Position numbers and translations under genes: made by a program
Notes under the pieces: generated by a model
The model's database searches: none
The model's input: the letters and a program-made list of their open reading frames with translations, nothing else
Told to the model about the DNA's origin: nothing
Source of the DNA: Nitrospinales bacterium
Lineage (GTDB): Bacteria > Nitrospinota > Nitrospinia > Nitrospinales > JAJDAT01
Direction of reading: 5' to 3'
DNA: 64,000 bases
Assembly: GCA_046757665.1 (NCBI GenBank)
Contig: JBHHYO010000003.1
Coordinates: 1-64,000 of the forward strand
Shown here: positions 11,000 through 55,151 of the stretch, piece after piece
How the letters are laid out: every line of letters starts with the position of its first letter
Position numbering within the stretch: position 1 is the stretch's first letter

Positions 11000-11145
11000 A
11001 AGCTTCGCATAAGTGTACTTGTTTGATTGTCATTGCGAGGAGCGGAGCCGACCAAGCAATCCAGAAGGCTGGATCGCCACGCCGCCGGTAGCGGCTCGCG
11101 ATGACACCGGAGCGGCGAAAAATCTCGGGTTATGCAACGCCTCGG
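11000..11145 (+). mobile_element. Family-A MITE/REP-like element, copy 1
   Basis: Imperfect TIRs GCTTCGCATAA / TTATGCAACGCC around the GTCATTGCGAG...CTCGCGATGAC core. Confidence 0.75.
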
Positions 11146-15440: not shown

Positions 15441-18266
15441 ATGATGGCATCCCTCGAACGCTTGAGCAAAACCCTGCAAAATTTCGGCAAGGAAAACCTG
15501 TCGGATATCATGCACTTCACAGCTACGGGCCTGAAGACCATTTTCAAATGCAAAATGGTGCGCATTTATCTGGAGGACCTGTACGAAGGGATGCTTATTT
15601 GCCAATACGTCACAGGTCAAAACCAAACGGGGAAAAACCGGATCACGCAGTATGTCTCACCGCGAACCTCGATCATTTCGCGGGCATTTTGCGAAAACCA
15701 CGCCATTTTATCCTGGAAGCCGTCGGAGAGTTTCCCCAAGGGGCCTTTTGAAAAGTTGTCCGGCATAAACGCTTCCGCGGCCTTTCCCATTCTTTTTCAA
15801 TTGCACCCCATCGGAGTGGTAAGCCTGGATTGGGAAAAAAGCGGAGAATTTCTGACTCCGCCGCAAATCGAACGGGTGCAATCTTTTTTAATCGACAACG
15901 GAGCGGTGATTGACCGGGCCAAGCGGTTTCATCAGAAGATAAATTTTTCCAAGCACCTGGACCTGGCGCGCAAAAAAGAAGCCGCCTGGATGATGTTGCG
16001 CTCCGCCGTCAAGCTGATCGACAAGCTGAGCCTGGCATCCGTTCTGGTTCCGGTTTCGCCGAAAAGCTCCTGGATTCCCGGCGAAGCGCCCACGGACATG
16101 GTGGAGGTTCTGGCGGCCTACTCGAAAAACGAAGAAGACGCTTTTATCTACAGCACCAAGGACAAGATGAGCGTCTTGAACGATCAAAACCTGATCAACC
16201 GGGTTTTAAACTACGACCCGGTCCAGGGGCTGGTGGCCCGCGAGGCCGGGCAACGTCCGGTGTACATCGAAAACGTGATGGACGAAAAGTTCACGCGCAA
16301 ATCCCTGGCCCGGAAAATCGACCTGGTGTCGCTTTATCAAGTTCCCAAATTCGATAAAAAATCCGGCCGGTTCATTTGCACCGTCAACTATTACACCAAC
16401 GCCCCGCACCATTTCAACCCGTTTGAAAAAAGGCTCCTGGAGGAACATGCCTCCATGGTGAAAAAACTGATTCTGGAAGAGGGGCAAGCGCGTGTGGAAA
16501 TCCAGGTGCTGAGTGAAATCGAGGAACTGCTGTCCGCCCGGGACGATTCCCTGCAATCCTTTTTGAACAAGATCCTCGACAAGACGTCCGAACTCCTGGG
16601 AGCCGACAGCGGCACAATCTCCATCATGAAACACCTTGACGGCAAACCCTGGCTGGTGGTGGAGGAGGACTCGGGGAAAATCGTCGGAGCAAAATCCCAC
16701 GGCTGGAAAAAAAACAAAATCCCGCCCCTGGCCGTCGGCGGCGAGGAAATCCCGAAAGAACAGCGCTCCCTGACAGGCTATTGCGCCCATACCGCCCGGC
16801 CGGTGCTTGTGAAAGATGTGTCGGACCCCGCGCAAACCCTGGGCTTCTACAAAAACCTGTCCTCGTCCATCCGGGCGGAGCTGGCGGTGCCTCTCATTTC
16901 CGGCAACAACGTTTTGGGCGTCATCAACCAGGACAGTTTGCAAAAGCACTATTTCACCAAGGAGCATCAGGATATCCTGCAAATCATCGCCCAGCTCATC
17001 AGCCAGAAGATGGCCACCCTCATCCGCATCGAGGACCTGAAACAGGAAATCAATTATCTGACCCGGGACATCGAATACCGCGACCCCAAGGTGTCCTCAT
17101 ATTATTTCGGCAACGTCATCGGCAAGAGCGAGGAGATCAACACCCTGGTGAGCCAGATCGACACGGTGGCGGAATCCATCTGCAACCGCATGTTGCGCTG
17201 GGAGAGCAGTCACCAGCGGGAAACGCTGACCGGGCTTCCCTCGCTGTTGCTCACGGGCAAGACGGGAACGGGCAAGGAATTTTTTTTCAACAACATTTAT
17301 TCCCGCCTGACGGAAATTTTTGAAAAGGAAAAAGGCGGCCAGTTCGAGTTGCCGCTCAAAAAAACCAACATCGCCGCCTACAGCGGCGAACTGACGTACA
17401 GCGAGCTTTTCGGCCATAAAAAGGGCGCTTTCACCGGCGCCGCATCGAACCGCCGCGGCATCTTTGAAGAAGCCAACGGCGGCGTGGTGTTTCTCGACGA
17501 GATCGGCGACGCCGACCCCAAAACCCAGGTGCAGTTACTGCGATTCCTGGACACCGGCGTTTTCATGCGGCTGGGGGAGAACGAACCGCGGTACTCCCGA
17601 ATCTTTCTGGTTGCCGCCACCAACAAAAACCTGCTGGACGAAATCGACAAGGGATTGTTCCGCGAAGACCTTTACCATCGCCTGAACGAACTGAGCTTCC
17701 ACATTCCTTCCCTGAACAAACGCAAGGAGGACATCGAAGACCTGGCCGTTCATTTTCTCGGAAAACTGTTCCACACCTATCGGAAGAAAAACACGGACGA
17801 ACCCAAGCCGTATCTGGGAAAGGACGCGATCGACTACCTGAAATCCCACCATTACCGCGGCAACGTCCGGGAGTTGAAGAACATTCTCCTGCGCGCCCTG
17901 CTGTTCCGGGACGGCCCTGCCTTGACCCGCGACAACATCATGATGGCCTGCCGCGTCAAGGAAAAACACACCGCATCGGAACCCGATTTTTCTCCGCACC
18001 ACATCGCCGAAAAGATACTGGACAAACTGGAAACGGGCGAAAGCAATTTCTGGGCGGAAGTACACCGTCCGTTCAAAAACAACGACCTGACACGGGACAC
18101 GGTGAAAACCCTCATCCACGCCGCCAAATCCAGGTACCGCACCAACCTGCCCGGCCTGGCCGTCAAACTGCGGGCTTGCGACAACCATATCGACCCGCCG
18201 GAAAAACAAAAATTCGTCAGCTTTAAAAATTTTCTCTATAAAACCGTGAAATTCAGCGATAATTGA
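15441..18266 (+). CDS. Multi-GAF sigma54-dependent enhancer-binding protein
   Basis: Walker A GKTGTGKE, SELFGHKKGAFTGA, FLDEIGD, FREDLYHRL, GNVRELKN; N-terminal GAF-like segments. Confidence 0.92.
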   Translation: MMASLERLSKTLQNFGKENLSDIMHFTATGLKTIFKCKMVRIYLEDLYEGMLICQYVTGQNQTGKNRITQYVSPRTSIISRAFCENHAILSWKPSESFPKGPFEKLSGINASAAFPILFQLHPIGVVSLDWEKSGEFLTPPQIERVQSFLIDNGAVIDRAKRFHQKINFSKHLDLARKKEAAWMMLRSAVKLIDKLSLASVLVPVSPKSSWIPGEAPTDMVEVLAAYSKNEEDAFIYSTKDKMSVLNDQNLINRVLNYDPVQGLVAREAGQRPVYIENVMDEKFTRKSLARKIDLVSLYQVPKFDKKSGRFICTVNYYTNAPHHFNPFEKRLLEEHASMVKKLILEEGQARVEIQVLSEIEELLSARDDSLQSFLNKILDKTSELLGADSGTISIMKHLDGKPWLVVEEDSGKIVGAKSHGWKKNKIPPLAVGGEEIPKEQRSLTGYCAHTARPVLVKDVSDPAQTLGFYKNLSSSIRAELAVPLISGNNVLGVINQDSLQKHYFTKEHQDILQIIAQLISQKMATLIRIEDLKQEINYLTRDIEYRDPKVSSYYFGNVIGKSEEINTLVSQIDTVAESICNRMLRWESSHQRETLTGLPSLLLTGKTGTGKEFFFNNIYSRLTEIFEKEKGGQFELPLKKTNIAAYSGELTYSELFGHKKGAFTGAASNRRGIFEEANGGVVFLDEIGDADPKTQVQLLRFLDTGVFMRLGENEPRYSRIFLVAATNKNLLDEIDKGLFREDLYHRLNELSFHIPSLNKRKEDIEDLAVHFLGKLFHTYRKKNTDEPKPYLGKDAIDYLKSHHYRGNVRELKNILLRALLFRDGPALTRDNIMMACRVKEKHTASEPDFSPHHIAEKILDKLETGESNFWAEVHRPFKNNDLTRDTVKTLIHAAKSRYRTNLPGLAVKLRACDNHIDPPEKQKFVSFKNFLYKTVKFSDN

Positions 18267-18709: not shown

Positions 18710-19197
18710 CGGCGGCGCTGTTTTCCTTCGCGGCCCTCGCGGTCCTGACGTTGTCCGTCATGAAAACGTCCCGGCTGTTTCAGGAGTTTGAAACCCTGAA
18801 CAAGCAAATCGGCGGGTTGCGGGAGCAGTTCCAATCCACGCGCCTGCGCTTGAGAAAAAAAATCAACCGCCTGGTCGTTTTGCAAAAAGAGTCGGCTGGA
18901 GAAACCATCCCCACCGTAACGTTTCAAAAGCTGGGGAAAACCGTGAACGTCCTGTTTCCCGACGACACGATTTATTCCCTGGCCGAGGACGAGGGGTTCG
19001 GCCTGACCGGCACCTGCGAGGGCAACGGCGATTGCGCCCTCTGCGCCATCAGCATCGTGTCGGGGGCGGAAAACATCAGCCCCATGGAGGAGGAAGAAGC
19101 GGCGATTCTGAAACAGCTCGACCGTCCGGCAGGGTGCCGCCTGTCCTGCCAGGCCCACGTGAAAGGCGATATCGTCGTGAATTTCCTGGAACTGTGA
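18706..19197 (+). CDS. Membrane-anchored 2Fe-2S ferredoxin
   Basis: CEGNGDCALC...RLSCQ after an N-terminal TM and coiled coil. Confidence 0.85.
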   Translation: MTAALFSFAALAVLTLSVMKTSRLFQEFETLNKQIGGLREQFQSTRLRLRKKINRLVVLQKESAGETIPTVTFQKLGKTVNVLFPDDTIYSLAEDEGFGLTGTCEGNGDCALCAISIVSGAENISPMEEEEAAILKQLDRPAGCRLSCQAHVKGDIVVNFLEL

Positions 19198-19314
19198 AAT
19201 ATTAAAACTGGCGGCGGCGAGCAACATCGGCTAAAATTGACACGACGCGCCAATATCGTTCGCGCCATCCGTAAAACCGTTTTACCCAATCATTAAATCC
19301 TGGAAGGAGAAACC

Positions 19315-20625
19315 ATGCCCCCCACAGCGCTCGTCGCCGAAAAATTTAAAGTCAAGGACCTCTCTCTCGCCGACTGGGGCCGGGAGGAAATCATCCTGGC
19401 GGAAAAGGAAATGCCCGGCCTGATGGCCTTGCGGGAAAAATACGGCAAATCCAAGCCGTTGAAAGACGCCCGTATCGCGGGGTCCCTGCACATGACCATT
19501 CAGACCGCCGTGCTGATCGAAACCCTTATCGAACTGGGAGCGCGGGTGCGCTGGGCGTCGTGCAATATTTTCTCCACCCAGGACCACGCGGCGGCGGCCA
19601 TCGCCAAGGCGGGAATCCCCGTCTTCGCCTGGAAAGAGGAAACCGAGGAGGAATACTGGTGGTGCACCGGACAGACTCTTTTATTCGACGGCGGCCAGGG
19701 ACCCAACATGATCCTCGACGACGGCGGCGACCTGACTTTTCACGTGCACGAGCACCATCCGGAACTGCTTGCCGAAATCCGCGGCATCACCGAGGAAACC
19801 ACCACCGGCGTGCACAACCTCTATAAAATGCTGAACAAGGGAACGCTGAAAGTCCCGGCCATGAACGTCAACGACTCGGTCACCAAATCCAAATTCGACA
19901 ACCTGTACGGTTGCCGGGAATCGCTGGCGGACGGCATCAAGCGGGCGACGGACATCATGCTCGCCGGAAAAGTGGTGGTGGTCGCCGGGTACGGCGACGT
20001 CGGCAAGGGATGCGCCCAGTCGATGAAGTCCTACGGCGCCCGCGTCCTGGTCACGGAAATCGACCCCATCTGCGCCCTGCAAGCCGCGATGGAAGGCTAT
20101 GAAATCACCACCATGGAGGACGCGGCGAAAATCGGCGACATCTTCGTCACCACCACCGGTTGCCGGGACATCATCCGCATCGACCACATGGAAGCGATGA
20201 AGGATAACGCCATCGTCTGCAACATCGGCCATTTCGACGTGGAAATCCAGGTGGAGCCCTTGAACCGCTATCCCGGAATCAAAAAGCGCGTCGTCAAACC
20301 GCAGGTGGACAAGTACACGTTCCCGGACGGGCACAACATCATCCTGCTGGCGGAGGGGCGGCTGGTGAACCTCGGTTGCGCCACGGGGCATCCCTCGTTC
20401 GTCATGTCCAACTCCTTCACCAACCAGGTGCTGGCGCAAATCGAGCTGTTCAAGAACAAGTACGAAGTCGGCGTTTACATGTTGCCGAAACAACTCGACG
20501 AGGAAGTCGCCCGACTGCACCTGGAAAAACTCGGCGTCAAGCTGACCCGCCTGACCTCGGAACAGGCCGATTACCTGAACATCCCGGCCGACGGCCCCTA
20601 CAAGCCGGAGCATTACCGGTACTGA
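19315..20625 (+). CDS. ahcY: Adenosylhomocysteinase
   Basis: [59 protein letters not shown]. Confidence 0.98.
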
Positions 20626-20647: not shown

Positions 20648-20968
20648 TCAGGCCCGCGTCCAGAATTGGATGATCATCCCCCCGGCGACGATGAAGCCGC
20701 CGCCGACCAGCAGGGGAAGCGTGATTTTTTCCTGGAAAAACCAATACCCCGCCGCTTGGCTGGCTACGAAAAAGAGAACGATGTAGACGCCCATCATGCG
20801 GTTGAAATTCATGGGCGCCAGATTGATCAACGTGCCGTAGGCCGTCAACAAAGCCGCGCCGAGCAAAAGAAAATAGAAGGCGCCGTGAAGCCCCTTGCGA
20901 ATCAAGGCGTCGCCGCCGACCTCGAACGCCGAGGCAATAATCAAAAGAGACAAACTCAACCCGGACAT
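20648..20968 (-). CDS. Small 4-TM DMT/SMR-like (YnfA-like) membrane protein
   Basis: 106 aa, conserved FEVGGD in TM1, four hydrophobic helices. Confidence 0.7.
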   Translation of the reverse strand: MSGLSLSLLIIASAFEVGGDALIRKGLHGAFYFLLLGAALLTAYGTLINLAPMNFNRMMGVYIVLFFVASQAAGYWFFQEKITLPLLVGGGFIVAGGMIIQFWTRA

Positions 20969-21023
20969 AGCGTTTCCTTTATGAAGTTTTGCAGTTGCGA
21001 GGCGGGACGGGACAACATTCCCG

Positions 21024-21350
21024 TTAGCCTCGGGGATGGTCGTCACACTCGCGGACGGCGGCGCGGATCATCTCACTGGAAGGATAGCCCTTCGGAGTTC
21101 CATTCCACAGATAAATGCGGCATCCCCGGCCAAAATCGGCCGAGGCCCGCGCTTCTTTTTCAACGTCCCGCCCGTCAATGTGAATCGAGGGCGAGCCAAG
21201 AAACCGGCGCTCTACCGCCTGCTCGCCGGAAGTCACGTTGATCGTTTCCACCGGCGCGTCGATGCCTTCCTCCGCCAGAACCTGCCGCAGAAGTTCGAGG
21301 GCGGGTTCGTGGTTGGGACAACCGTCAAAATATAAAAACTCGATTTTCAT
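21024..21350 (-). CDS. Thioredoxin-like protein (DUF2703-like, mer-associated)
   Basis: LYFDGCPN, FLGSPSIHIDGRD, CRIY. Confidence 0.8.
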   Translation of the reverse strand: MKIEFLYFDGCPNHEPALELLRQVLAEEGIDAPVETINVTSGEQAVERRFLGSPSIHIDGRDVEKEARASADFGRGCRIYLWNGTPKGYPSSEMIRAAVRECDDHPRG

Positions 21351-21354
21351 GATA

Positions 21355-21627
21355 TCACTCCTTCCGCAACGATCCGGGAACAACCTCGCAGGTTGCCGCG
21401 CCGGCGCCGGACCCGCTTTTTCTCCGGCAACGCAAATAATACGACCAGCCGAAAAGCAGGCCGGCCAGGGCCAGCAGGGGCCAGTGCAAAAACCCGATAT
21501 CCCGGATGAAGCTTACAGCCCCCGCGCCGAGTCCCAGACCGGCCAAAACGGTGGGGCCCACGCAACAAACAGAGCCGACCCCCGCCGCCGTCAGTCCACC
21601 CAAAAAGGAAATATTTTCTTTTCGCAT
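21355..21627 (-). CDS. MerT-like mercuric transporter, short two-TM form
   Basis: GSVCCVGP TM1 Cys pair followed by LGLGAG; ends before a third TM. Confidence 0.72.
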   Translation of the reverse strand: MRKENISFLGGLTAAGVGSVCCVGPTVLAGLGLGAGAVSFIRDIGFLHWPLLALAGLLFGWSYYLRCRRKSGSGAGAATCEVVPGSLRKE

Positions 21628-21687
21628 TCGTGCCACCTCACAAAATTCTTTCAATGAATGATTCAAACGTTCGCGCTTCGTATTTCG

Positions 21688-22677
21688 TCAATCCGTGCCC
21701 CGCACAGCCTCTGGCCCCCGGTCGCGATCCGGCGGATAAATGGAGTTGATCACGTTTCCAAGCATTTTGGATTCGTTCAGAACGCGGGCTCCCTCGTCGC
21801 CGATAGGGTTCCCCCACATTTGCAAAATACGCAGATTGCGGAAAATCTTCGAACCCGCTATTGCAGTCGCTCCCTCGGCGGTAATTGCGTTCCATTGCAA
21901 ATCCAGTTCCCTTAGATTTTTGAGTGGAGAAGCCCGCGACAGTATTTTCACACCCCCGCTCCCCAAACGGTTTTTTCTGAGGACCAGTTTTTCCAGAAGC
22001 CGCACGGGCGAGTCCGGCAAAGCCTTTATCCCCTCCGGGCCTATATCGTTTTCGGGGACTTCAAAAACCGCAAGCCTGCCGAGAAGCGGCGATCGGATCA
22101 AAGCGGCAAACCCCGCGTCGCCAATGTTGTTTTTTCCCAAAACGAGTTCTTCGAGATGTTTCAATGTTTCGGATTGGGCGATCACTCGGGCGCCCGCGGT
22201 TTCTATGCCGTTTCCCGTCAGGTCCAGAGAAACCAGCCGGGTCAAAACGCTTGAATGCGCCAGGGCACGCGCGCCTGCCGGGCCAATATGACTTCCCCAC
22301 AAATTCAGCTTCCTCAATTGCTTGAAATTTTCGGACCGCGCAATGGCCTTTGCCCCTTCCACTCCAATCTGGTTATTGAACAAATTCAAAACCTCAAGAT
22401 TCTTGAGATACCTGGACTGCGCCAGGGCAATTACGCCTTCATCCGTTATGTCATGTCCTTGCAGAGCCAGGACCTTGACCTTCCCCACCATCCTCGACTT
22501 GGCCAGCAACTTGACTCCCGCGTCCTTGAGAATCCCGCTCCTTTCCATGGCAAGATAGGTGCCGTTTTTCTTAAGATCGCTATAGATCAGGGGATTGATG
22601 TCCAAAGCGGAAGCCGGAATGGGACCTGTCAGCAGAAACCCCAGGGTGGACAAACCCGCCAGTACCGATTTCGTCAT
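21688..22677 (-). CDS. Exported ribonuclease-inhibitor-like leucine-rich repeat protein
   Basis: ~28-aa repeats LxxLxLxxNxIGxxGAxALA; signal peptide from MTKSV (frame is open from 22821). Confidence 0.85.
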   Translation of the reverse strand: MTKSVLAGLSTLGFLLTGPIPASALDINPLIYSDLKKNGTYLAMERSGILKDAGVKLLAKSRMVGKVKVLALQGHDITDEGVIALAQSRYLKNLEVLNLFNNQIGVEGAKAIARSENFKQLRKLNLWGSHIGPAGARALAHSSVLTRLVSLDLTGNGIETAGARVIAQSETLKHLEELVLGKNNIGDAGFAALIRSPLLGRLAVFEVPENDIGPEGIKALPDSPVRLLEKLVLRKNRLGSGGVKILSRASPLKNLRELDLQWNAITAEGATAIAGSKIFRNLRILQMWGNPIGDEGARVLNESKMLGNVINSIYPPDRDRGPEAVRGTD

Positions 22678-22696
22678 AATGACCTTACCCCTAAAA

Positions 22697-22820
22697 AGAA
22701 ACTCTGTAAAAATCCTTGTTTGATTGTCGTTGCGAGGCGGCTCAGCCGACAAAGCAATCCGGAAGGCTGGATCGCCACGCCGCTGGTTGCGGCTTGCAAT
22801 GACGCCGGGATGGCGGCGCA
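22697..22820 (+). mobile_element. Family-A element, copy 2 (degenerate ends)
   Basis: CTTGTTTGATTGTCGTTGCGAGG...GCAATCCGGAAGGCTGGATCGCCACGCCG...CTTGCAATGAC. Confidence 0.75.
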
Positions 22821-24971
22821 CTAAGGGAAATCGTGAACCATCAGATTCACTTCCAGTCCGTCAAGTAAAAAGCCGAAATTCGCGTTGCCCGCCATGGTCG
22901 TAATAATCCCCTTTCGGTCAACCCGGCGAATCCTGTTGTTGATTCGATCGGTAAAATAGAGATCACCTGCCGCGTCAAACACCATGCGGCGGGGATGATT
23001 CAACTGCGCCAGGACCGCGGGGCCGCCATCACCGCTGAAACCGGCTTCACCGGTTCCCGCAACGAGAGTGATGATTCCGTTTTTGTCGATTTTGCGAATC
23101 CGATGGGTTTGTTCCTCGGCGACATACAATTCCCCCGCCGGGGAAACCGCCAGCCCGGAGGGAGAGCGAATGCCCGCCAACAGCGCCGGCCCGCCATCGC
23201 CGAAATCGTCGAAGTCTCCCGTTCCCGCGACGGTCGTGACATTTCCCGCAGTATCGATCTTTCTGATCTTGCTACTGCCGGAATCGGCAACATAAATATT
23301 TCCCCGTCCATCGACGGTCAAACCGTTGGGATGAATATCGCCTTCCAGGTCTCCCCATCGCTTTTCGGCCACCCGGGTGATGATGCCGTTTTTGTCGATG
23401 CGGCGGATGAAGGGGTTGGCGTTATCGGCCACCAGCACGTTTCCTTCCGGGTCCACCGCAAGGTCCCGGATCGCGTAAAAAGAAGCATCAATGGCAGGCC
23501 CGCCATCGCCGCCGGTGCCGACCTTGCCGTTGCCCGCAAACCGGGTGATCTTTCCCCGGGCATCTATTTTTCTTATATTCCAGCCGTTGGCCAAAGGCGA
23601 AACGAGATAGATATTATCCTCGCGGTCGATGGCCAGGGCGGAAGGCCGGAACAAGGAAGCGTAAGCGGCCGGTCCGCCGTCACCCAAATTTCCGGGTTTG
23701 CCGTTTCCCGCAAACCTGGAAATGTATCCGTGGGAATCGATCTTGCGAAGCTCGTGGTGCATCTGATCGGCGAAGACAATATTTCCCCTGCCGTCGATCA
23801 CCAGCCCTTGCGGCCCGTTCAAGGTAGCTCCCAGCGCCTCGCCTTGATCCCCTTTCAATAAAAATTTTCCGTTGCCGGCGATGGTCTCAACCCGGCTCCT
23901 TTGAAACTTCAACCGCCGAACACGAAAATGCGACCGGTCCACGACGACCAGACTGCGGCTCCCCGGCTCCACTTCCAGGGCAAACGGCAGGTGGAGATTG
24001 GTTTCCGAGGCCAGGCCCTGATCGCCGTTGTAATCGGTCTGCCCCGTTCCCATAAGCGTAAAAATAATTCCGTTGGTGTCGACTTTGCGGACGCGGTTGT
24101 TGTTTCGGTCGGCGATGTAAAGGTTGCCCGCATCGTCCACGGCGACATCGGTCGGATAGGCCAGGTTGGCCAAGGTCGCCGGGCCATAGTCGCCGCGGGA
24201 AGCGAACAAGCCGTCTCCGGCCACGGTAATGATGACTCCGTCTCTGCCCACCTTGCGGACCCGGTTATTGCCCCGGTCCGCGATATACAAATTTCCCGCG
24301 CCATCCAGGGTGATTCCAAAAGGAAATTTTAAAAAAGCATCCTCGGCGGGCCCGAAATCGCCGGCAAAACCGGCAACCCCCAAACCCGCGAAAGTCGTGA
24401 TGATCCCCCTGGAATCGACCTTGCGGATTCGGTGATTGGAGCGGTCGGATATATAAATGTTTCCGTCGCCGTCACAGGCCACGTCGGAAGGCAAGTTCAA
24501 GCTCGCTTGCGTCGCCGGCTCTTCATCTCCCGCATAGTCGGCGATGCCGTTGCCGGCGATGGTGGTGATGATCCCGGAAGGATCGACCTTGCGCACCCGG
24601 TGATTGTTGCGGTCGGCAATGAACAGGTTTCCCTGTTTATCGAAGGCCAGCCCCGCGGGGAAGTTGAGCGAGGCTTCCACGGCGGAGCCGCCATCGCCGC
24701 TGAAACCGGCCTTGCCGTTTCCCGCCACCGTTGCGATAATTCCGTTCTTGTCGATTTTCCGGACGCGGTTTTTGGAGCGGTGGGAAATGTAAATATTGCC
24801 TTCGGGATCCACGGCAATGCCGTCCACCAAAGTGAGAATGGCCGAAAGCGCGGACCGCCCATCTCCAACGTCCTTGAAGAACCGCACGGGAGCGGAGATA
24901 GCCTCGCCCACAAAAACCAGCAGTGCCAGGGCGCAAATCAGCCCCCTGTTCAAACAAGTTGTCATTTTCAT
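22821..24971 (-). CDS. Exported NHL-repeat (teneurin-like) double beta-propeller protein
   Basis: About 12 ~56-aa repeats of type RVRKID..GII.T.AG.G..G..GDGG.A..A.L..P; signal peptide. Confidence 0.9.
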   Translation of the reverse strand: MKMTTCLNRGLICALALLVFVGEAISAPVRFFKDVGDGRSALSAILTLVDGIAVDPEGNIYISHRSKNRVRKIDKNGIIATVAGNGKAGFSGDGGSAVEASLNFPAGLAFDKQGNLFIADRNNHRVRKVDPSGIITTIAGNGIADYAGDEEPATQASLNLPSDVACDGDGNIYISDRSNHRIRKVDSRGIITTFAGLGVAGFAGDFGPAEDAFLKFPFGITLDGAGNLYIADRGNNRVRKVGRDGVIITVAGDGLFASRGDYGPATLANLAYPTDVAVDDAGNLYIADRNNNRVRKVDTNGIIFTLMGTGQTDYNGDQGLASETNLHLPFALEVEPGSRSLVVVDRSHFRVRRLKFQRSRVETIAGNGKFLLKGDQGEALGATLNGPQGLVIDGRGNIVFADQMHHELRKIDSHGYISRFAGNGKPGNLGDGGPAAYASLFRPSALAIDREDNIYLVSPLANGWNIRKIDARGKITRFAGNGKVGTGGDGGPAIDASFYAIRDLAVDPEGNVLVADNANPFIRRIDKNGIITRVAEKRWGDLEGDIHPNGLTVDGRGNIYVADSGSSKIRKIDTAGNVTTVAGTGDFDDFGDGGPALLAGIRSPSGLAVSPAGELYVAEEQTHRIRKIDKNGIITLVAGTGEAGFSGDGGPAVLAQLNHPRRMVFDAAGDLYFTDRINNRIRRVDRKGIITTMAGNANFGFLLDGLEVNLMVHDFP

Positions 24972-25017
24972 ACTGCCCGCCAAATCGAAAGCTTCCCGCG
25001 GCAAGCCGTGCAGAGCG

Positions 25018-25449
25018 TCAGGGCGACCGGCTTGCCGTCTTGCCTTCAGCCTCCATCTCAAAATTCTCCAGGATCGGACAGTCGGAAGTCGGCGCGTTTG
25101 TGCGGCATTTCTCGATCAGCCCGGTCAGCGCTTTGCGCATCGATTTCAAGTTCCTGATTTTTTTCTCAACCTCATCCAGCTTGCCCTGGGCCTTCCGCAA
25201 AACCGGTCCGCAGGCCTTGCCCTTGCGCACGCGGAGCTTCAACAGCTCGGCGATTTCCTCCAGGGTAAACCCCAGTTTCTGGGCGTTTTTGATAAAGCGG
25301 ACCCGGGCGGCGTCCGACCCGGTGTAAAGCCGGTAGCCCTTCTCCGAGCGCAACGGCGGGTCGAGCAGTCGCCGGTTCTCGTAATAGCGGAGCGCCTCGA
25401 TGTTGATTCCGCATCGGCGCGCCAATTCGCCGCGTTTCAAGTATCCCAT
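25018..25449 (-). CDS. MerR-family heavy-metal-responsive regulator (Hg-MerR-like Cys triad)
   Basis: HTH GELARRCGINIEALRYYE, GYRLY, LGFTLEEI, KAC and C-x8-C (KCRTNAPTSDCPIL); AGGAGG RBS. Confidence 0.92.
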   Translation of the reverse strand: MGYLKRGELARRCGINIEALRYYENRRLLDPPLRSEKGYRLYTGSDAARVRFIKNAQKLGFTLEEIAELLKLRVRKGKACGPVLRKAQGKLDEVEKKIRNLKSMRKALTGLIEKCRTNAPTSDCPILENFEMEAEGKTASRSP

Positions 25450-25473
25450 GATTCCTCCTGCCTCTCTCTCAAT

Positions 25474-25504
25474 AATATATCCCTGTATCTTGATACAGGG
25501 TCAA
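25474..25504 (-). promoter_or_regulatory. MerR-type promoter/operator upstream of the merR-like gene
   Basis: TTGACC, 19-bp spacer, TATATT; dyad CCCTGTATC-TT-GATACAGGG at 25481-25500. Confidence 0.88.
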
Positions 25505-25556
25505 GGAGAAAATGCGCCGGGGGCGATTTTCTCCCAAGTCCGGCGGGCGGTTGCGG

Positions 25557-26549
25557 TCAGGGCAACCCGCTTTTCAAGTGGAATATCTGAACGCGGTTGT
25601 TGCCCCAATCGACGGCATAGAGCCGGTTTTGCGAGTCCAGGGCGAGGTCGGTCGGCGCGTTGAACCGGCCCGGCTCCTCTCCCTTGCCGCCCCACTGGGC
25701 GAGATACGAACCCTGATCCGAGAAGACCTCGACGCGGTGGTTGTAGAAATCCGCGACGTACACGCGGCCGTCCCCGCCGACGGCAATTCCGGCAGTGACC
25801 CGGAACTGCCCGCCCAGGTACCCGGCGCCCCCCCATTGAAACAGGAACTTTCCCCCGGAGGTGAAAACCTGTACCCGGTTGTTGTAGGCGTCGGAAACGT
25901 AAACCCTGTCTTTCGGCCCCACGGCGATGCGGGCCGGATAATTAAAATTGCCCTCGGCGCCGGGATTGATCATGAAGGAAAAAAACGACCGCACCACATT
26001 GATGGGCCGGTACTCGCCCCATGCCTGCAAAAAGTTCCCCTGTGAATCGAATTTTTGCAGTCGATGATTGTAGGTCTCGATGACGTACAGGTTGTCGTGG
26101 GAATCGACGGCCACGCCGCCGGGGGAATCGAACTGGCCATGCCCTTTGCCGTTGCCTCCCCACTGTTTCAGAAAGCGCCCCTCGGCGTCGAATTTCTGGA
26201 TGCGGTCCAGATCGTAATCGCTGACATACACGTTGCCCCGCGAGTCCACCGCCAGGCCGGACGGTTTTTCAAATTGGCCCGGCGCGTCGCCCTGCCCGCC
26301 CCATTGCCGGACGAATTTGCCGCTGGCGTCGAATTGTTGCACGCGGTGGTTGCGCACGTCTCCCACATAGACCCGGCCCTTGCCGTCAACGGCAATGGCG
26401 TAGGGCTCATCGAACTCGCCCGGCCGCTCGCCTTTTTTGCCGAATGCGTCAACCCCGGAAAACGGCGGCGCCCCGCCCGAACAGCCGCCGAGTAAAAGAA
26501 CAACAAGAAAACCCAAGAGGAGGCAGACCATGCGGAAGCGTTGCATCAT
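25557..26549 (-). CDS. NHL-repeat six-bladed beta-propeller lipoprotein
   Basis: Lipobox LLGGC; repeats GQF..P.G.AVD..G.VYV.D..N.R.Q.F; ATGA overlap with the HMA gene. Confidence 0.88.
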   Translation of the reverse strand: MMQRFRMVCLLLGFLVVLLLGGCSGGAPPFSGVDAFGKKGERPGEFDEPYAIAVDGKGRVYVGDVRNHRVQQFDASGKFVRQWGGQGDAPGQFEKPSGLAVDSRGNVYVSDYDLDRIQKFDAEGRFLKQWGGNGKGHGQFDSPGGVAVDSHDNLYVIETYNHRLQKFDSQGNFLQAWGEYRPINVVRSFFSFMINPGAEGNFNYPARIAVGPKDRVYVSDAYNNRVQVFTSGGKFLFQWGGAGYLGGQFRVTAGIAVGGDGRVYVADFYNHRVEVFSDQGSYLAQWGGKGEEPGRFNAPTDLALDSQNRLYAVDWGNNRVQIFHLKSGLP

Positions 26550-26875
26550 TTGCCTCCCTTCGTTGCGGAGCGCGTGATGGGTCCGGGCGTAAATCCGGCG
26601 TCGTCCACCGCCCGGTTGACCGCCGCGTCGCTGAGCGTGGCGCCGGGCCTGAGATAGAGCTTGGCCACGCCCTGTTTCAAATGAACCTCGACCCGCGCCA
26701 CCCCCTTCAGCCGCTTCAATTTTTTCTCGACGCCATAGGTGCAGAACGGACAAAACATGCCCTTCACTTTTACGGTGATGACCTCCTTGCCGTCCTGCGC
26801 GAAAACGGGCGGCGCCGCTTGCAGGAGAAAGGCGGCCAGCACGGCGATCCAAAAAACGGATTTTGTATTTGTCAT
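26546..26875 (-). CDS. Periplasmic HMA-domain metal-binding protein (MerP-like)
   Basis: Signal peptide; VKGMFCPFC; DAGF. Confidence 0.88.
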   Translation of the reverse strand: MTNTKSVFWIAVLAAFLLQAAPPVFAQDGKEVITVKVKGMFCPFCTYGVEKKLKRLKGVARVEVHLKQGVAKLYLRPGATLSDAAVNRAVDDAGFTPGPITRSATKGGK

Positions 26876-26891
26876 GGAGTCCTTCTCCTTT

Positions 26892-27785
26892 TTAAAAGGT
26901 GTAGCGAAAACTGAACGCAAGCTGATAATCGGATTCCAACTGGTTGCCGTTCAAGTCTTGCACGATCGGAACTTGAATGGAAAACCCGAAAATCGTCTGC
27001 TGATCGACGAACTGGATTCCCGGCGAAAGGAACAGCGTGTTGCCGCCGGAGGCCTCGACGGTACTTCCCCCGGCCGCATTGCGCCGGGTGTAGACGCCAT
27101 TGAGTTCCAGGACGGCATTCCACTGGGTGTAAAGCCCCTCGTCGGGAAACGTCCAGGGCCAGAACCTTCTCTGGTAGGCGAAGTTGTAATTGAATTTGTC
27201 GCCGAAGTCGAAATCATTTGCCTCGCGATTAAATTTGTAGACGACGTTGATGTCCACCTCCTGGGAGAGCGAACCGAAGGTGTACAATCCGCCGGCAATA
27301 AAATCCACGGAGCCGGACCCCAACTGCAAGGGCGCGGGGAGAACGCCCGCGGAGTCGCGCTCCTCATTGTCGCCCGTCGGCAGTTCCAGCCCGCCGATCA
27401 CGGAAAACCGCGAAGTCGTTCCCTTGTAATCCAGGGTATAAAACCGGTACTTGCCCAGAAGCGTGGTGTCGCCCACCCCCTGGTTGCTCCGGGTGGAGCC
27501 GCCGGCGGTTCGCAAATCCTTGTTGATATAAGGCGCCTTCACCAGCACCGCGGCCCGGGACGTAATCCCGTAAACCCCCACCACCGGCAGGGTGAAAACG
27601 TCCAGCTTGCGGTTCCGGCCGGAAGGGTCGTCGGCCTTGCGCACGAACCGCGCCTGAGTGCGCACAATGACCTGTCCCTTGAAGGGAGTGAGGCCGACGT
27701 CGCTGTTGATCGGCGCGGCAAAAACCGGGCCGCCGCAAAACATGAGAACTATTAAGGACGATAATAAAAATTTCGGTTTAAACAT
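26892..27785 (-). CDS. Outer-membrane beta-barrel transporter (MetA-pathway/SphA-like family)
   Basis: Signal peptide, GVGD, LPTG, QLGSGSVD, LSPG, C-terminal FRYTF. Confidence 0.78.
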   Translation of the reverse strand: MFKPKFLLSSLIVLMFCGGPVFAAPINSDVGLTPFKGQVIVRTQARFVRKADDPSGRNRKLDVFTLPVVGVYGITSRAAVLVKAPYINKDLRTAGGSTRSNQGVGDTTLLGKYRFYTLDYKGTTSRFSVIGGLELPTGDNEERDSAGVLPAPLQLGSGSVDFIAGGLYTFGSLSQEVDINVVYKFNREANDFDFGDKFNYNFAYQRRFWPWTFPDEGLYTQWNAVLELNGVYTRRNAAGGSTVEASGGNTLFLSPGIQFVDQQTIFGFSIQVPIVQDLNGNQLESDYQLAFSFRYTF

Positions 27786-27820
27786 AATCGGTTCCTTCCT
27801 TTTTGGACCTTTCAATATGC

Positions 27821-27852
27821 AGTATAGACTCTGTATTTAAGTACAGGGTAAA
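27821..27852 (-). promoter_or_regulatory. Second MerR-type promoter/operator, upstream of the barrel-HMA-NHL genes
   Basis: TTTACC, 20-bp spacer, TATACT; dyad CTCTGTATTTAAGTACAGGG with the same CTGTA-N6-TACAG geometry. Confidence 0.8.
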
Positions 27853-27907
27853 GCATTAACCGGCCGCGTGGGCGGACATTCGGACGAAAGAAAAATGGAG
27901 GAACGGC

Positions 27908-28372
27908 TTAAAGGCGGAAAACGGATTGGAGCAGAAACAGCGGCGGCGTCTTTCCGGCCCGCACATGACCGGACGCAAGGCGGTCCGATGTGGACGATGT
28001 CCGCGGCAGAAGCCCGGCGGCGGCGCAATCGGCGGCACAGGGGAAGGCAATGGATTTGACCGATGGAGCCGAGGGCAGGATTTTCGCTACGGCGATAGTG
28101 GGAAAACGCTTGACTCCCATAACCGAGGCGCAACGGTCCTGGCAACACTGGACATGCGCCGCGCCGCTTTCGCCGCAATTCTTCATGTCCCCATGCCCGT
28201 GCGCCTTCATGGCCGGTATCTTGTGGGAGCAGAAGATTTTGCAACACAGCCGGGCCTCGCCCGAGGCCACGGGAGCCTTGATGGGAAGTATCAAACCCGT
28301 TAAAACGAGGCCGAGAGCCAGCTTGTATGCAAACGATTTTTTAATCATAAAATAGACGGAAACCGATTTCAC
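27908..28372 (-). CDS. Cys/His-rich exported-type small protein (DUF2946-like architecture)
   Basis: Signal-like N terminus, CC/CH clusters, C-terminal PPLFLLQSVFRL; start GTG 28372 or ATG 28348. Confidence 0.6.
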   Translation of the reverse strand: MKSVSVYFMIKKSFAYKLALGLVLTGLILPIKAPVASGEARLCCKIFCSHKIPAMKAHGHGDMKNCGESGAAHVQCCQDRCASVMGVKRFPTIAVAKILPSAPSVKSIAFPCAADCAAAGLLPRTSSTSDRLASGHVRAGKTPPLFLLQSVFRL

Positions 28373-28384
28373 ATGTTCGGTTTA

Positions 28385-28415
28385 AATATACTCCCCGCAC
28401 GGGGCGCAAAGTCAA
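28385..28415 (-). promoter_or_regulatory. Promoter with 19-bp spacer and GC dyad
   Basis: TTGACT, 19 bp, TATATT; CCCCG-CA-CGGGG in the spacer. Confidence 0.55.
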
Positions 28416-28539: not shown

Positions 28540-28703
28540 ATTGCGCTTTCTGTTGTCTGACAGCAGTCAAAAGTTCAGCATATCTCCCGCGGGCGTATGC
28601 CCGCCTGGATTGCTTCGCTACGCTCGCAATGACAGGCAAACAAGGAGACTTGGTGGCTAAAACTTTTTTTCTTTCCTTTGCGTCCTCCGCGCCTTCGCGG
28701 TGA
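28540..28703. repeat. Composite repeat remnants (family D, family-A half, family C)
   Basis: GCAGTCAAAAGTTCAGC...CCCGCGGGCGT shared with 52699-52765; GGATTGCTTCGCTACGCTCGCAATGACA; CTTTGCGTCCTCCGCGCCTTCGCGGTG. Confidence 0.65.
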
Positions 28704-28739: not shown

Positions 28740-29639
28740 TTATCCGTCGGTATGATTTAGCGGGTGGTTGTCGAAAAATTTTTGCATGAGGGGAACGATG
28801 CGCTCGTGGGCGTCCTCGACGACGTAATGTCCGGCGTCCGCAAATTCGTGCAATTCGGCTTGGGGAAAATATTCCAGCCAGCGTTCCAGGTAGTGGTCGT
28901 TGAAGCAAAAATCCTTTTTCCCCCAGAGGATCAAAACGGGCCGGTCGGCGAACTGGGTCAATTGCTCCTGCATGGATTTGACGAGGGGGAAGCTCGGCGT
29001 TTTTCGCGACATCGGAATGTCCTGCACGAAGCGCAGGATGGCGACGCGGTTGGCGTAGGTGTCGTAGGGGAAAAGGTAGCCGGCCTTGACTTGCGGGCTC
29101 ATGGGCCGCCGGCAGGCGCGGGAAACCGCCAGGCCCGCGAAGGCGTTCAGGCCGCGGACGGCCAGGGGGCCGAATAGCGGCAGTCGGCACAGGTTGATGC
29201 TCCAGGGAATCTCCCGCGACAGGAAGGCGGCGGTGTTGAACAGCACCAGGCGCTTGACGCGGCCGGGATGGCGGACGGCGTACCCCATGCCGATGGCGCC
29301 GCCCCAGTCGTGCAGAACCAGCGTCAGGCCGGTCAGGCCCAGATGCTCCACCAGCGCCTCCAGGTTGTCGACGTGCCGCGCCAGGGTGTAGTCGTATTGT
29401 TGCGGTTTGTCGGACAGGCCGCAACCCATGTGGTCCGGCGCCACGCAACGGCACTGCTCCCTCAACCCGAGGATGAGGTTGCGGTAATAAAAAGACCAGG
29501 TGGGGTTGCCGTGCAACATCAACACGGCGTCGCCCTGGCCCTCGTCCAGGTAGTGGTATCGCAGGGAGTCCAGGGAGAGGGTTCTGGATTGGAAGGGATA
29601 CAACTCGGCGAACGCCCGCCGTTTGTCATCGGTCACCAT
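28740..29639 (-). CDS. oleB: Haloalkane-dehalogenase-like alpha/beta hydrolase, OleB-like beta-lactone decarboxylase
   Basis: HGNPTWSFYYR, DHMGCGLSDKP, LHDWGG, WGKKDFCF, AGHYVVED; overlaps the oleA stop. Confidence 0.8.
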   Translation of the reverse strand: MVTDDKRRAFAELYPFQSRTLSLDSLRYHYLDEGQGDAVLMLHGNPTWSFYYRNLILGLREQCRCVAPDHMGCGLSDKPQQYDYTLARHVDNLEALVEHLGLTGLTLVLHDWGGAIGMGYAVRHPGRVKRLVLFNTAAFLSREIPWSINLCRLPLFGPLAVRGLNAFAGLAVSRACRRPMSPQVKAGYLFPYDTYANRVAILRFVQDIPMSRKTPSFPLVKSMQEQLTQFADRPVLILWGKKDFCFNDHYLERWLEYFPQAELHEFADAGHYVVEDAHERIVPLMQKFFDNHPLNHTDG

Positions 29640-30679
29640 TCCAACCCGAGCATCAGGCAGTTCAAGCCGCTGCCGATGCCGAGGAGCGCGGCCTTGTCGC
29701 CTTTTTTGAGGCACCCCGCCTCCTCGCCCAGGGCCAGGGTGGCCGGCAGGGAGGCGGCGCCCGTGTTGCCCAGAAACTCCAGGGTCGAGAAGTCCTTTTC
29801 CATCGGCAGGCGCAGGGTTTCGTACATGAGCTTGCGGTGCAGGTGACCGACCTGATGGCAAAACACGCGGTCCACGTCGTCGTTGCTCCAGGCAAGCGTG
29901 GCCTTGGTTTTCTCCCAGGTTTTTCCCGCCAGCAGGCATCCTTGTTTCATGAGGGTTTCCGAATCGGTTGTCATGAGCGGCGTGGATTCGGCGTTCATGC
30001 CGCCGTCGGCGTTGCCGCGGCAGAGGTCGTTGAACTCGGTGGCGGCCCAGGCCTCGCCGCCCAGGAGTTTGTGGTAGGACCGGGACAAACTGCGGTGCGT
30101 CAGCAAGACCGCCGCCGCGCCGGAGCCGATGGTCAGCGAGGCGAAGGAGGATTTCACGTCGGCGCGTTTGAGTTCGGGGTTCGAGCGAAGCGTTTCGATG
30201 GTGTGGTCGATGAGGGGGCCGCCGTTCTCGCCGGCCACCACCAGGCCGGCGCGGATTTGCCCCAGCTCGATCATGTCGGCGATAATCACCATTCCGTTGA
30301 GCACGCCCAGGCAAGCGTTGGACACGTCGAACAGCAGGGCCTCCCGCGACAGGTCCAGATTGTGATGGATGACCGAGGCGGTGGCGGGCTCCAGAAAGTC
30401 GCGGCACACCGAGGCGCAAATCAGGCAACCGATTTCGCCGCGGTCCAGCCCGGATTTCTCGATGGCCTTTTCGCCGGCGACGGAGCTGATTTCGCTGGGA
30501 TAGACGCCGTTGTTCCAGAACCGGCGCTCGCGGATGCCGCTCATCATCTCCAGGCGGCCGTAGGGCAGTTTCAACCGGTCGTAAACCTCCGCCAGCCGCT
30601 GTTCCAGCTCCGCCGAGGGCACGATGTTTTCCGGCAAATGGCAGGCCACGGCCTCGACGCAAACATTTTCAAATTTCAT
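29633..30679 (-). CDS. oleA: OleA-type acyl-CoA Claisen condensing enzyme (KAS III-like)
   Basis: GIRERR, RDFLEPATA (OleA-type Glu), DVSNACLG, HQVG, GNTG, GIGSGLNC. Confidence 0.85.
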   Translation of the reverse strand: MKFENVCVEAVACHLPENIVPSAELEQRLAEVYDRLKLPYGRLEMMSGIRERRFWNNGVYPSEISSVAGEKAIEKSGLDRGEIGCLICASVCRDFLEPATASVIHHNLDLSREALLFDVSNACLGVLNGMVIIADMIELGQIRAGLVVAGENGGPLIDHTIETLRSNPELKRADVKSSFASLTIGSGAAAVLLTHRSLSRSYHKLLGGEAWAATEFNDLCRGNADGGMNAESTPLMTTDSETLMKQGCLLAGKTWEKTKATLAWSNDDVDRVFCHQVGHLHRKLMYETLRLPMEKDFSTLEFLGNTGAASLPATLALGEEAGCLKKGDKAALLGIGSGLNCLMLGLEW

Positions 30680-30701: not shown

Positions 30702-30838
30702 AGAGCTTTGCATAAGTGTACTTGTTTGATTGTCATTGCGAGGGGCGAAGCCGACGAAGCAATCCAGAAAGGACCCATTCCTACCGGGCGTGGCCCGGCT
30801 GGATCGCCACGCCGCCGGCGCGGCGAAGAACCTCGGGC
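30702..30838 (+). mobile_element. Family-A element, copy 3
   Basis: GAGCTTTGCATAAGTGTACTTGTTTGATTGTCATTGCGAGG...GCTGGATCGCCACGCCG. Confidence 0.78.
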
Positions 30839-52483: not shown

Positions 52484-52641
52484 AGAGCTTTGCATAAGTC
52501 GAGATTCCTCGGCATCCCTGGAGTCATCGCGAGCCGCGACAAGCGGCGTGGCGATCCAGCCGGGCCACGCCCGGGGCGCTTTTCTGGATTGCTTCGCCTC
52601 CGCGCAATGACAATCAACCAAGGATATTTATGCAAAGGTTC
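52484..52641 (-). mobile_element. Family-A element, copy 4 (both TIRs, inverted orientation)
   Basis: GAGCTTTGCATAA...TTATGCAAAGGTTC ends; core GTCATCGCGAG...GCAATGAC. Confidence 0.8.
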
Positions 52642-55035: not shown

Positions 55036-55151
55036 TTGTCATTGCGAGGCGGCAACCGAAGCAATCCAGAAAGGATCATTCCCACCGGGCGTGGCCCGGC
55101 TGGATCGCCGCGACACCGGAGCGGTAAAGTTTCGGGTTAGGCAAAGGTCTC
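55027..55151 (+). mobile_element. Family-A element, copy 5 (overlaps the shc stop)
   Basis: TGTTTGATTGTCATTGCGAGG...GGGCGTGGCCCGGCTGGATCGCC...TTAGGCAAAGGTCTC. Confidence 0.78.

Follow-up and report, generated by a model that had tools for sequence, protein, structure and literature searches.

Classical mer biology explains how Hg(II) is sensed, taken up across the inner membrane and reduced, but it explains neither the passage of mercury across the outer membrane nor the mer-like genes of many genomes that lack the mercuric reductase MerA. MerT, the inner-membrane importer, has three helices with a Cys–Cys pair in the first and a cytoplasmic Cys pair, and the hallmark of MerA is its C-terminal Cys pair. 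The pbr operon of Cupriavidus metallidurans (PbrR, PbrT, PbrD) joins a three-Cys MerR-type sensor to uptake, envelope handling and a cytoplasmic Cys-rich binder without any reductase. Herein, we describe a gene cluster at positions 20648–28415 of a 64,000-nucleotide (nt) stretch of Nitrospinales DNA (assembly GCA_046757665.1, contig JBHHYO010000003.1, positions 1–64,000, forward strand), the whole of which is called the window. With a confidence that stands at about even, the region is best explained as two adjacent units of a mercury-type system without the reductase, where "mercury-type" denotes a MerR-family system aimed at a thiophilic divalent metal.

Unit A consists of promoter P1 and the genes for a secreted Cys-rich protein, a 12-strand outer-membrane channel (the barrel), a periplasmic HMA protein with a CPFC metal loop and a six-blade NHL propeller (NHL6), and originally also included the gene for a thioredoxin-like protein of the DF family; it is the Nitrospinales version of a cassette present in many phyla. 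Unit B, which sits between NHL6 and DF, consists of promoter P2 and the genes for a MerR-family regulator, a secreted protein with about 12 NHL repeats (NHL12), a leucine-rich repeat (LRR) protein and a two-helix relative of MerT (Table 1). Gene content, promoter architecture, conservation and fold are directly established. The cluster is very probably a genuine MerR-type envelope system for soft metals, most likely a mercury-type uptake or sequestration relay. In this cluster and its relatives, a regulator and an operator of mer type are supplemented by three conserved envelope parts, namely a channel, a CPFC carrier and a propeller predicted to hold the metal loop of that carrier.

A cassette of channel, carrier and propeller

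The barrel alignment was used to scan one genome per species; 196 stretches matched, of which 146 encode relatives, and 80 loci were kept, 55 of them fully flanked. Beside the barrel gene, a secreted HMA protein is encoded in 69 of the 80 loci (49 of the 55 that are fully flanked) and NHL6 in 54 (41 of 55), the two occurring together in 39 of the 55. A MerR gene lies within 2.5 kb of the barrel in 41 loci (in 32 of the 55, a three-Cys MerR), and a gene for a small cytoplasmic thioredoxin-like protein with the motif CxxC..CxxC..CC (TrxCC) is present in 27 (21 of 55). DF adjoins the barrel in four loci, all fully flanked, and NHL12 and the LRR gene in one of the 80 each. The carriers belong to Nitrospinota, Nitrospirota, Thermodesulfobacteriota, Alpha- and Gammaproteobacteria, Planctomycetota and other groups, and they include the cultured Halomonas elongata, Litchfieldella rifensis, Halomonas flagellata, Sedimenticola selenatireducens and Thalassospira profundimaris. 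In the window, the genes for the CPFC-HMA protein, the barrel and the six-blade NHL protein, whose adjacency on one strand defines the cassette, stand side by side at 25557–27785. The co-oriented MerR gene directly upstream and the small thioredoxin-like gene after the cassette, both also part of the definition, are missing there; the merR of the window lies downstream of NHL6 and heads the other unit, and DF takes the place of the thioredoxin-like gene.

Unbiased clustering of the open reading frames (ORFs) of the 80 loci gave MerA as the commonest neighbour after the four core families, with 14 members in 13 loci; the cluster representative reaches 852.7 bits (cut-off 600), and tblastn with a threshold of 300 bits places MerA in 12 of the 80. 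The next commonest neighbours are CzcB (11 loci), ArsR (8), MerT (8) and CzcA (7), P1B ATPases occur in seven loci, and multicopper oxidase genes are also seen in the flanks. In a Thalassospira locus (L089) the cassette abuts merR-merT-merP-merF-merA, with a MerA of 530.6 bits. The transporters within the cassette operons are MerT- or MerC-like, and no exporter was seen there.

In three loci a MerT gene has been inserted right between NHL6 and the neighbouring barrel or HMA gene (L098:8956-9294, L105:9474-9809 and L106:2270-2626), which ties the inner-membrane importer physically into the cassette. A groundwater metagenome-assembled genome of Nitrospinota (L059:5244-9894) encodes on one strand MerR, a MerT-like protein, a second HMA protein with an ordinary CxxC, a 198-residue protein with CC and CPCC motifs, a thioredoxin-like CC protein, the CPFC-HMA protein, the barrel and NHL6.

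No published description or name of the HMA–barrel–NHL6 cassette was found in literature searches of article texts. The accessible portion of a Gallionellaceae paper (PMC10734462) names NHL proteins only in an unrelated cytochrome pathway, that of PMC10839748 holds no account of such a cluster, and PMC7760498, as far as its available text goes, is unrelated. The earlier note on this DNA, made from the letters alone, had put the cluster forward as a candidate for an undescribed system and proposed a gene-neighbourhood search. That search did find synteny in relatives, and no account of the cassette was found in print in the above scope; its core is nevertheless not unique to the window, being widespread, usually accompanied by its own MerR and often located beside merTP(F)A.

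The barrel has no Pfam match up to E 10 and no NCBIfam match, falls short of the PF13557 model, and retrieved nothing in a sequence-profile search of the PDB with its alignment. Its homologues (462 at E ≤0.001, from Nitrospinota, Omnitrophota, Verrucomicrobiota and others) are in many cases annotated as PF13557 or "transporter", and many of those at 40–84% identity carry PF13557 in precomputed annotation. The AlphaFold2 (AF2) model, built from 50 sequences, is a 12-strand barrel (pLDDT 88.3, pTM 0.81) for which Foldseek returned FapF (5o65, E 3.8e-11, TM 0.68) and the COG4313 channel 4rl8 (E 1.8e-9, TM 0.66/0.72). Asp, Glu, Arg, Gly and Ser make up the conserved positions, and none of these is Cys, His or Met. 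In the plasmid collection, only distant relatives of the barrel were present (24–31% identity, 11 records).

The HMA protein scores below the cut-offs of both the CopZ models (43.2 bits) and the MerP model TIGR02052 (33.7 bits, cut-off 92.55). Across 45 aligned cassette HMA proteins G39, C42, P43, F44, C45 and G48 are invariant, and all 45 have the CPFC loop. NHL6 is a lipoprotein in Nitrospinota, with the lipobox LLGGC in the window, and has an uncleaved-looking N-terminal helix in Proteobacteria (both by eye). At the D-x-Y-N position, blades 2–6 each have an aromatic residue, either Tyr or Trp.

The two proteins were submitted to complex prediction in one job, NHL6 as residues 34–330 and the HMA protein as residues 28–104, each as an alignment. 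The predicted complex scored 0.67, the best of three controls 0.02. Of 157 solved complexes, 116 attained this mark, as did 2 of 215 mismatched pairs, a calibration that holds only roughly here because custom alignments were used. Contact agreement between runs was at least 79%, with a partner pLDDT of at least 82. On the HMA side, the predicted interface comprises the family invariants C42, P43, F44, Y47, G48, E50, K51 and G94. On the NHL6 side, each blade contributes one or two top-face residues, among them Y112, Y160, Y204, F268, Y269 and W315, each conserved or aromatic in 39–43 of 43 sequences (Y112 in 42, Y160 in 40, Y204 in 43, F268 in 39 and Y269 in 41). The prediction, a check proposed in the earlier note, passed its controls and supports binding of the HMA metal loop to the six-blade propeller.

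Regulator, operator and the absence of a reductase

The MerR protein of the window is the sole protein with a MerR-DNA-bind domain in the genome. Its Cys residues are C80, C115 and C124, with spacings of 35 and 9. In an alignment with 33 cassette MerRs, it has the three metal-binding Cys of mer-type MerR, one at the start of the dimerisation helix and a C-terminal pair nine residues apart. The first Cys is kept in 29 of the 33 cassette MerRs and the C-terminal pair, at the same spacing, in all 33 (by eye). All models score the window protein below cut-off, the ZntR model at 124.8 bits and the MerR model TIGR02051 at 122.5 (cut-off 150.85). Among the 10 of the 33 cassette MerRs tested, which score 122.8–140.9 bits, TIGR02051 is the best NCBIfam model for eight, always under cut-off, and the ZntR model for two.

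P1 and P2 have in common TTGAC(C/T), a 19-nt spacer and TATATT. The P2 spacer is filled by a perfect 9+9 dyad, CCCTGTATC-AA-GATACAGGG, centred at spacer position 8.5 as in Tn501; judging from its sequence, P2 has the geometry of MerR-activated promoters. The P1 dyad, CCCCG-TG-CGGGG, is unrelated in sequence and centred at spacer position 11.5, 3 bp further downstream. In the equivalent promoters of six close relatives, which have no MerR within 8 kb, the spacers are 17–18 nt long and show no common dyad (by eye).

The symmetrical MerR-binding sequence of the Tn501/Tn21 mer promoter is given as CCGTACATGAGTACGG (PMC11049809). Exactly this site occurs in one cassette locus (L039). The P2 dyad is a variant of it, with CTGTATC in place of CCGTAC, and is conserved in five related operons; a promoter of the P2 type precedes merR in L111, L112, L113, L115 and L059. 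Upstream of the cassette merR genes, TTGACN, 19–20 nt and TAnnnT are found in 25 of 33 cases, and a spacer dyad is the best inverted repeat in 20 of 33. A search of the 2.97-Mb genome for distant regulon members returned the P2 dyad once, at P2 itself, and otherwise only weak, chance-like sites.

On this evidence, it is the merR-headed half alone that is demonstrably mer-type. The mer-type regulator claimed in the earlier note is borne out by the three Cys and the P2 dyad. The companion claim of two promoters with matching operators fails, as the two dyads differ and the mer-type one is confined to P2.

No MerA exceeds the cut-off in this genome, the best match reaching 400.6 bits against 454.45 and ending in ...HAWRR without the C-terminal Cys pair. 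Among 102 genomes of the order, one has a MerA over cut-off, so the system described here may be the main way in which the order deals with thiophilic metals. MerB had no match in the genome, control genomes being equally silent, and the hgcA motif N[VI]WCA[AG] is not found in it. A single P1B ATPase is encoded (contig C10, 34041–35804). A split but otherwise ordinary mer operon was considered and rejected, since there is neither a MerA over the cut-off nor a second operator; as in the earlier note, the cluster is without merA, and the P2 operator has no other copy in the genome.

Two MerA-like pyridine-nucleotide disulfide oxidoreductases are encoded on contig C48 at 18782–20140 and 16086–17429 (400.6 and 366.8 bits), and homologues at E ≤1e-100 are present in 98 of the 102 genomes of the order. 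Oxidoreductases of this type could be the source of the "mercuric reductase" annotations in Nitrospina.

Origin of the arrangement and the remaining genes

The source genome, that of a bacterium of the nitrite-oxidiser type, comprises 2.97 Mb in 160 contigs and is 97.56% complete; its relatives carry the labels Nitrospinales and Nitrospinaceae. The sequencing runs that hold the window DNA are labelled hydrothermal vent metagenome. The ten co-oriented minus-strand genes listed in the earlier note are all present as ORFs between 20648 and 28415. Most of the identities that it gave them also stand, namely the HMA protein with CPFC, the NHL lipoprotein, the three-Cys MerR, the protein of about 12 NHL repeats, the LRR protein, the thioredoxin-like protein (DF), the outer-membrane barrel (by AF2 and Foldseek) and a conserved Cys/His ORF. 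Its short MerT appears to be a truncated relative, and its SMR-like protein has a weak match to UPF0060/YnfA (E 0.004).

Table 1. Features of the cluster in window coordinates. Preferred starts, chosen by eye as the first Met that precedes a signal peptide or follows a ribosome-binding site, differ from those of the longest ORFs.
Feature	Positions	Strand	Evidence
P1 promoter-like site	28385..28415	-	TTGACT, 19 nt, TATATT; short G+C dyad; precedes Cys-rich ORF
Small secreted Cys-rich protein, 146 aa	27908..28348	-	ORF and conservation in six Nitrospinales
12-strand outer-membrane channel (barrel), distant member of the PF13557/COG4313 "transporter" group	26892..27785	-	AF2 model, Foldseek, homologues
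Periplasmic HMA metallochaperone, CPFC metal loop	26546..26875	-	Pfam HMA 28.9 bits
Six-blade NHL propeller lipoprotein (NHL6)	25557..26549	-	NHL 162.6 bits, 6 stretches
P2 MerR-type promoter	25474..25504	-	TTGACC, 19 nt, TATATT; dyad at 25481–25500
MerR-family metal regulator, three Cys	25018..25449	-	MerR-DNA-bind 70.1 bits
Secreted protein, ~12 NHL repeats (NHL12)	22821..24971	-	TEN_NHL 280 bits; DNA repeats
Dispersed repeat, ~95 nt, REP/MITE-like	22700..22812	.	Fills NHL12–LRR spacer; blastn-short
Secreted LRR_6 (RNI-like) leucine-rich repeat protein	21688..22677	-	LRR_6 130.4 bits
Two-helix MerT-like membrane protein	21355..21627	-	Pfam MerT E 9.7e-4 (under cut-off); hhalign
Cytoplasmic DF-family thioredoxin-like protein (DGCPNH)	21024..21350	-	NF049942 120.6 bits, cut-off 70
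YnfA/UPF0060-like small membrane protein, 106 aa	20648..20968	-	Pfam E 0.0037, under cut-off

The genes are closely spaced in parts of the cluster: 16 nt separate the barrel stop from the HMA start, the NHL6 ATG overlaps the HMA stop codon (ATGA), and 4 nt lie between the MerT-like stop and the DF start. A terminator scan gave none that is convincing between the cluster genes, two of its matches being the promoter dyads themselves, and there may therefore be read-through from P1. The composition of the window gives no island signal.

Two related loci (L030 and L032) show the gene order alpha/beta hydrolase, Cys-rich ORF, barrel, HMA, NHL6, DF and convergent AhcY (flanks by eye). The flanks of the window match these loci; the extra genes are merR-NHL12-LRR-MerT-like between NHL6 and DF, and the YnfA-like gene after DF. 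The synteny of the hydrolase with the cassette in both loci suggests that Unit A was inherited vertically at this site. Upstream of the cluster, 28740–30679 of the window holds the alpha/beta hydrolase and a KAS III-like gene.

NHL12 has a separate history. The protein contains 11 TEN_NHL stretches, and its gene 11 DNA repeat copies with a spacing of mostly 168 nt. Orthologues of 56–76% identity were found in 97 of the 120 Nitrospinota genomes searched, all in one order, and in none of the 18 genomes of other families. An LRR gene adjoins NHL12 in all 11 of the other loci, and the usual site is GT2-LRR-NHL12-LRR-aldehyde-dehydrogenase-like-M50 peptidase beside trp genes. In four genomes (G023, G077, G030 and G024), a second and closer copy of NHL12 (66–76% identity) follows a MerR gene (53–61% identity) with a P2-type promoter; a MerT-like gene follows this MerR-NHL12-LRR run in the first three and is lacking in G024, and three of the four genomes also retain the ancestral copy. 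The operon of G030 continues with genes for an HMA-like protein, a DsrE-like protein, DF and two FGE-sulfatase/TPR proteins. In the window's own genome, the ancestral site (contig C7, 39686–43421) has been reduced to GT2-LRR-Aldedh-M50 by the loss of NHL12 and the downstream LRR gene, which makes the MerR-linked copy in the window the only orthologue found in the genome. The window LRR protein is 47% identical to the one that follows NHL12 at the ancestral site of another genome (G019). The NHL12–LRR pair of the window is a copy captured from a pair of core Nitrospinales genes; it is not a general part of the cassette.

LRR_6 relatives of the window LRR protein form a large paralogous family on contigs C14, C111, C27, C7, C13, C39, C142, C24, C29, C32, C77, C20, C5, C8 and C107. 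A full-length NHL12 paralogue of 51% identity lies within 16 kb of the only P1B ATPase gene of the genome and of genes for two large multihaem cytochrome-like proteins (C10:33000–52900, L131). The dispersed repeat of about 95 nt gave 103 blastn-short matches in the genome, is intergenic and has internal hairpin potential. Partial copies lie at 28623–28646 (inverted), 11018–11110, 30721–30765, 52523–52561 and 55029–55053 of the window, and the repeat inflates the N-termini of several longest ORFs, such as the LRR ORF and those near 30.7 kb.

Among the other genes, the Cys-rich ORF has no Pfam or NCBIfam match and no named Atlas family. The protein has a signal peptide (by eye), the motifs LCCKxxC and CCxxxC and a conserved C-terminal PLFL..S.F motif. 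Six Nitrospinales homologues occupy the same position and have in common the signal peptide, KLCCKxxC and CCxxNC, the CC, K and C positions being invariant; that the ORF is spurious was rejected on account of this conservation. The MerT-like protein has two helices only; a CC pair lies in the first, and the C-terminal tail holds two Cys. Aligned by hhalign with 12 MerT sequences, it gave 98.85% and E 4e-17 over 79 columns that cover helices 1–2 and the Cys loop, and its NCBIfam scores are 17–21 bits against cut-offs of 130–375. The YnfA-like protein is a weak match (Pfam 17.9 bits against 24.9, NCBIfam 16.9 against 114) with no homologue in any fetched locus; its nearest Atlas clusters score 0.99, and PF02694 is present in 31–65% of their members.

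Proposed function, rival explanations and known systems

For the metal, its direction of transport, the induction and the sequence of hand-offs, we propose the following. The metal, most probably Hg(II), would cross the acid-lined outer-membrane channel and then be picked up by the CPFC loop of the HMA protein, which would dock through this loop onto the top face of the NHL6 propeller. The MerT-like protein would next take over the metal with its Cys pair and pass it on to the DF thiols in the cytoplasm, and MerR, on the spacer dyad of P2, would turn on its own operon upon metal binding. Without MerA, the end point would be sequestration or hand-off to a reductant rather than volatilisation. 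The system would act like that part of a mer operon which senses the metal and takes it up, with a channel, a carrier and a docking propeller added on the outer side and cytoplasmic thiol proteins as its end. Mercury as the main metal is slightly favoured, and for an inward relay the chances are judged equal.

Several points weigh against this proposal. A mer-type operator is lacking at P1, which heads the genes for the channel, the HMA protein and NHL6, and the six close relatives have no MerR nearby. The ZntR model scores slightly above the MerR model for the regulator, and the HMA protein fits CopZ models better than MerP. The only Cys of NHL6 is that of the lipobox, and the protein lacks a conserved cluster of His or Met. 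In addition, CzcB, CzcA, ArsR and P1B ATPases are encoded in the flanks of the cassettes, and part of the MerA link may merely reflect mixed metal islands. Moreover, Hg(II) uptake without MerA should be harmful.

The triad of HMA protein, NHL6 and channel might instead serve exclusion or export, buffering periplasmic metal and letting it leave or blocking its entry across the outer membrane, together with an inner-membrane exporter. The lack of MerA, the P1B ATPase of the genome, the CzcCBA or P1B exporters in some cassette flanks and the closest fold, FapF, a secretion channel, would all suit such a role, as would the 38 of 54 NHL6 loci without a MerT or MerT-like match (by tblastn, MerC-like genes having been seen by eye only). 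It is considered unlikely, given that no exporter gene is seen inside the cassette operons, where the transporters are MerT- or MerC-like, that the P2 operator was not found at the ATPase gene, and that a cytoplasmic thioredoxin-fold Cys protein (TrxCC in 27 and DF in 4 of 80 loci) makes sense only if metal enters the cytoplasm. Somewhat less unlikely is a regulator that senses Cd(II), Zn(II), Pb(II) or a coinage metal, the cassette being a general soft-metal module and its mer likeness a matter of ancestry. The preference of the window MerR and of 2 of 10 cassette MerRs for the ZntR model, the closeness of the HMA protein to CopZ models and the Czc, ArsR and multicopper oxidase genes in the flanks point that way, and three Cys at the spacings of the window MerR also fit PbrR-type sensors. 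Mercury is in turn indicated by the Tn501-identical dyad of L039 and near-identical dyads in most cassettes, by MerA as the commonest neighbour, by partner transporters of the MerT, MerC and MerF types, and by a Cys in MerR at a position that is Ser in Cu(I) sensors.

The place of NHL12 and the LRR protein is a further question. In the earlier note, the cluster was a single ten-gene MerR regulon with both propellers and the LRR protein as scaffolds or targets of a new soft-metal system. The co-orientation of the ten genes with no convincing terminator between them agrees with this, as do the one-string order MerR-NHL12-LRR-MerT-HMA-barrel-NHL6-DF-LRR in locus L048 and the recurrence of MerR-NHL12-LRR(-MerT) in four other genomes. 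It is nonetheless improbable: P1 is without the operator, NHL12 and the LRR gene accompany the barrel in 1 of 80 loci, the pair belongs to the core genome with an ancestral site near trp genes, and the dispersed repeat parts NHL12 from the LRR gene. The uptake or envelope-handling side of that interpretation fits the parts; the single MerR-controlled cluster is not supported, and NHL12 and the LRR protein are not general components of the cassette. They could even be mere passengers, housekeeping envelope proteins rearranged behind merR with no metal role. This is held to be a minority possibility, one that accords with orthologues that occur in 97 of 120 genomes and for the most part have no MerR within 1.5 kb, with the ancestral GT2-LRR-NHL12-LRR-Aldedh-M50 context beside trp genes, with LRR_6 paralogues on many contigs, and with the loss of NHL12 and the adjoining LRR gene (LRRa) from this genome's ancestral site, so that the window copy must fill the housekeeping role. 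Against it stand the conserved MerR-NHL12-LRR-MerT order, short spacers and P2 of G023, G077 and G030 (the same without MerT in G024); three of these genomes keep the ancestral copy too, and the second one looks like a maintained metal-linked paralogue.

Within the proposed uptake relay, a bolder idea, given only a small chance of being right, is that the CPFC-HMA protein and NHL6 make up a periplasmic station of a new kind for handing over metal, in which the tyrosine ring and the CPFC loop would be the working site, and that, with the channel, they would provide a purpose-built route for Hg(II) into cells without mercuric reductase. If true, the station and channel would answer how mercury crosses the outer membrane, and deliberate Hg uptake by Nitrospinota would become testable. 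Nitrospinota are discussed as marine Hg methylators (bioRxiv 10.1101/648329). As the carriers of related cassettes include cultivable Halomonas, Thalassospira and Sedimenticola, the proposal as a whole is open to bench tests.

Compared with the mer operons of Tn21 and Tn501, the system likewise has a MerR-family regulator with three Cys that precedes its operon, a mer-type dyad in a promoter whose spacer is 19 bp long, a MerT-related membrane protein with a CC pair and a secreted HMA protein in the place of MerP, and relatives of its cassette adjoin true merTP(F)A. It differs by the absence of MerA, by MerR, MerT-like and HMA proteins that all fall below the equivalog cut-offs, by the CPFC loop, by a MerT without the third helix, and by the addition of an outer-membrane channel, an NHL propeller, a DF or thioredoxin-like protein, NHL12 and the LRR protein. 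The pbr operon, alike in its described parts, also has an in-operon P-type ATPase and a phosphatase, and has no outer-membrane barrel or propeller. With the COG4313/PF13557 channels (Pput2725, PDB 4rl8) and FapF (PDB 5o65), the window barrel has the 12-strand fold in common (TM 0.66–0.68), at 15–17% identity and with no Pfam match; COG4313 channels are linked to hydrophobic substrates and FapF to amyloid export, and neither is known to be linked to metals. Finally, NHL6 has the six-blade fold of TRIM71, Thin and the PknD sensor domain by sequence (E 3e-59 for TRIM71, 1.8e-22 for PknD). The ligands of NHL propellers bind the top face around the axis; NHL6 differs from these proteins in being bacterial, lipid- or helix-anchored and periplasmic, and its predicted partner is the metal loop of an HMA protein.

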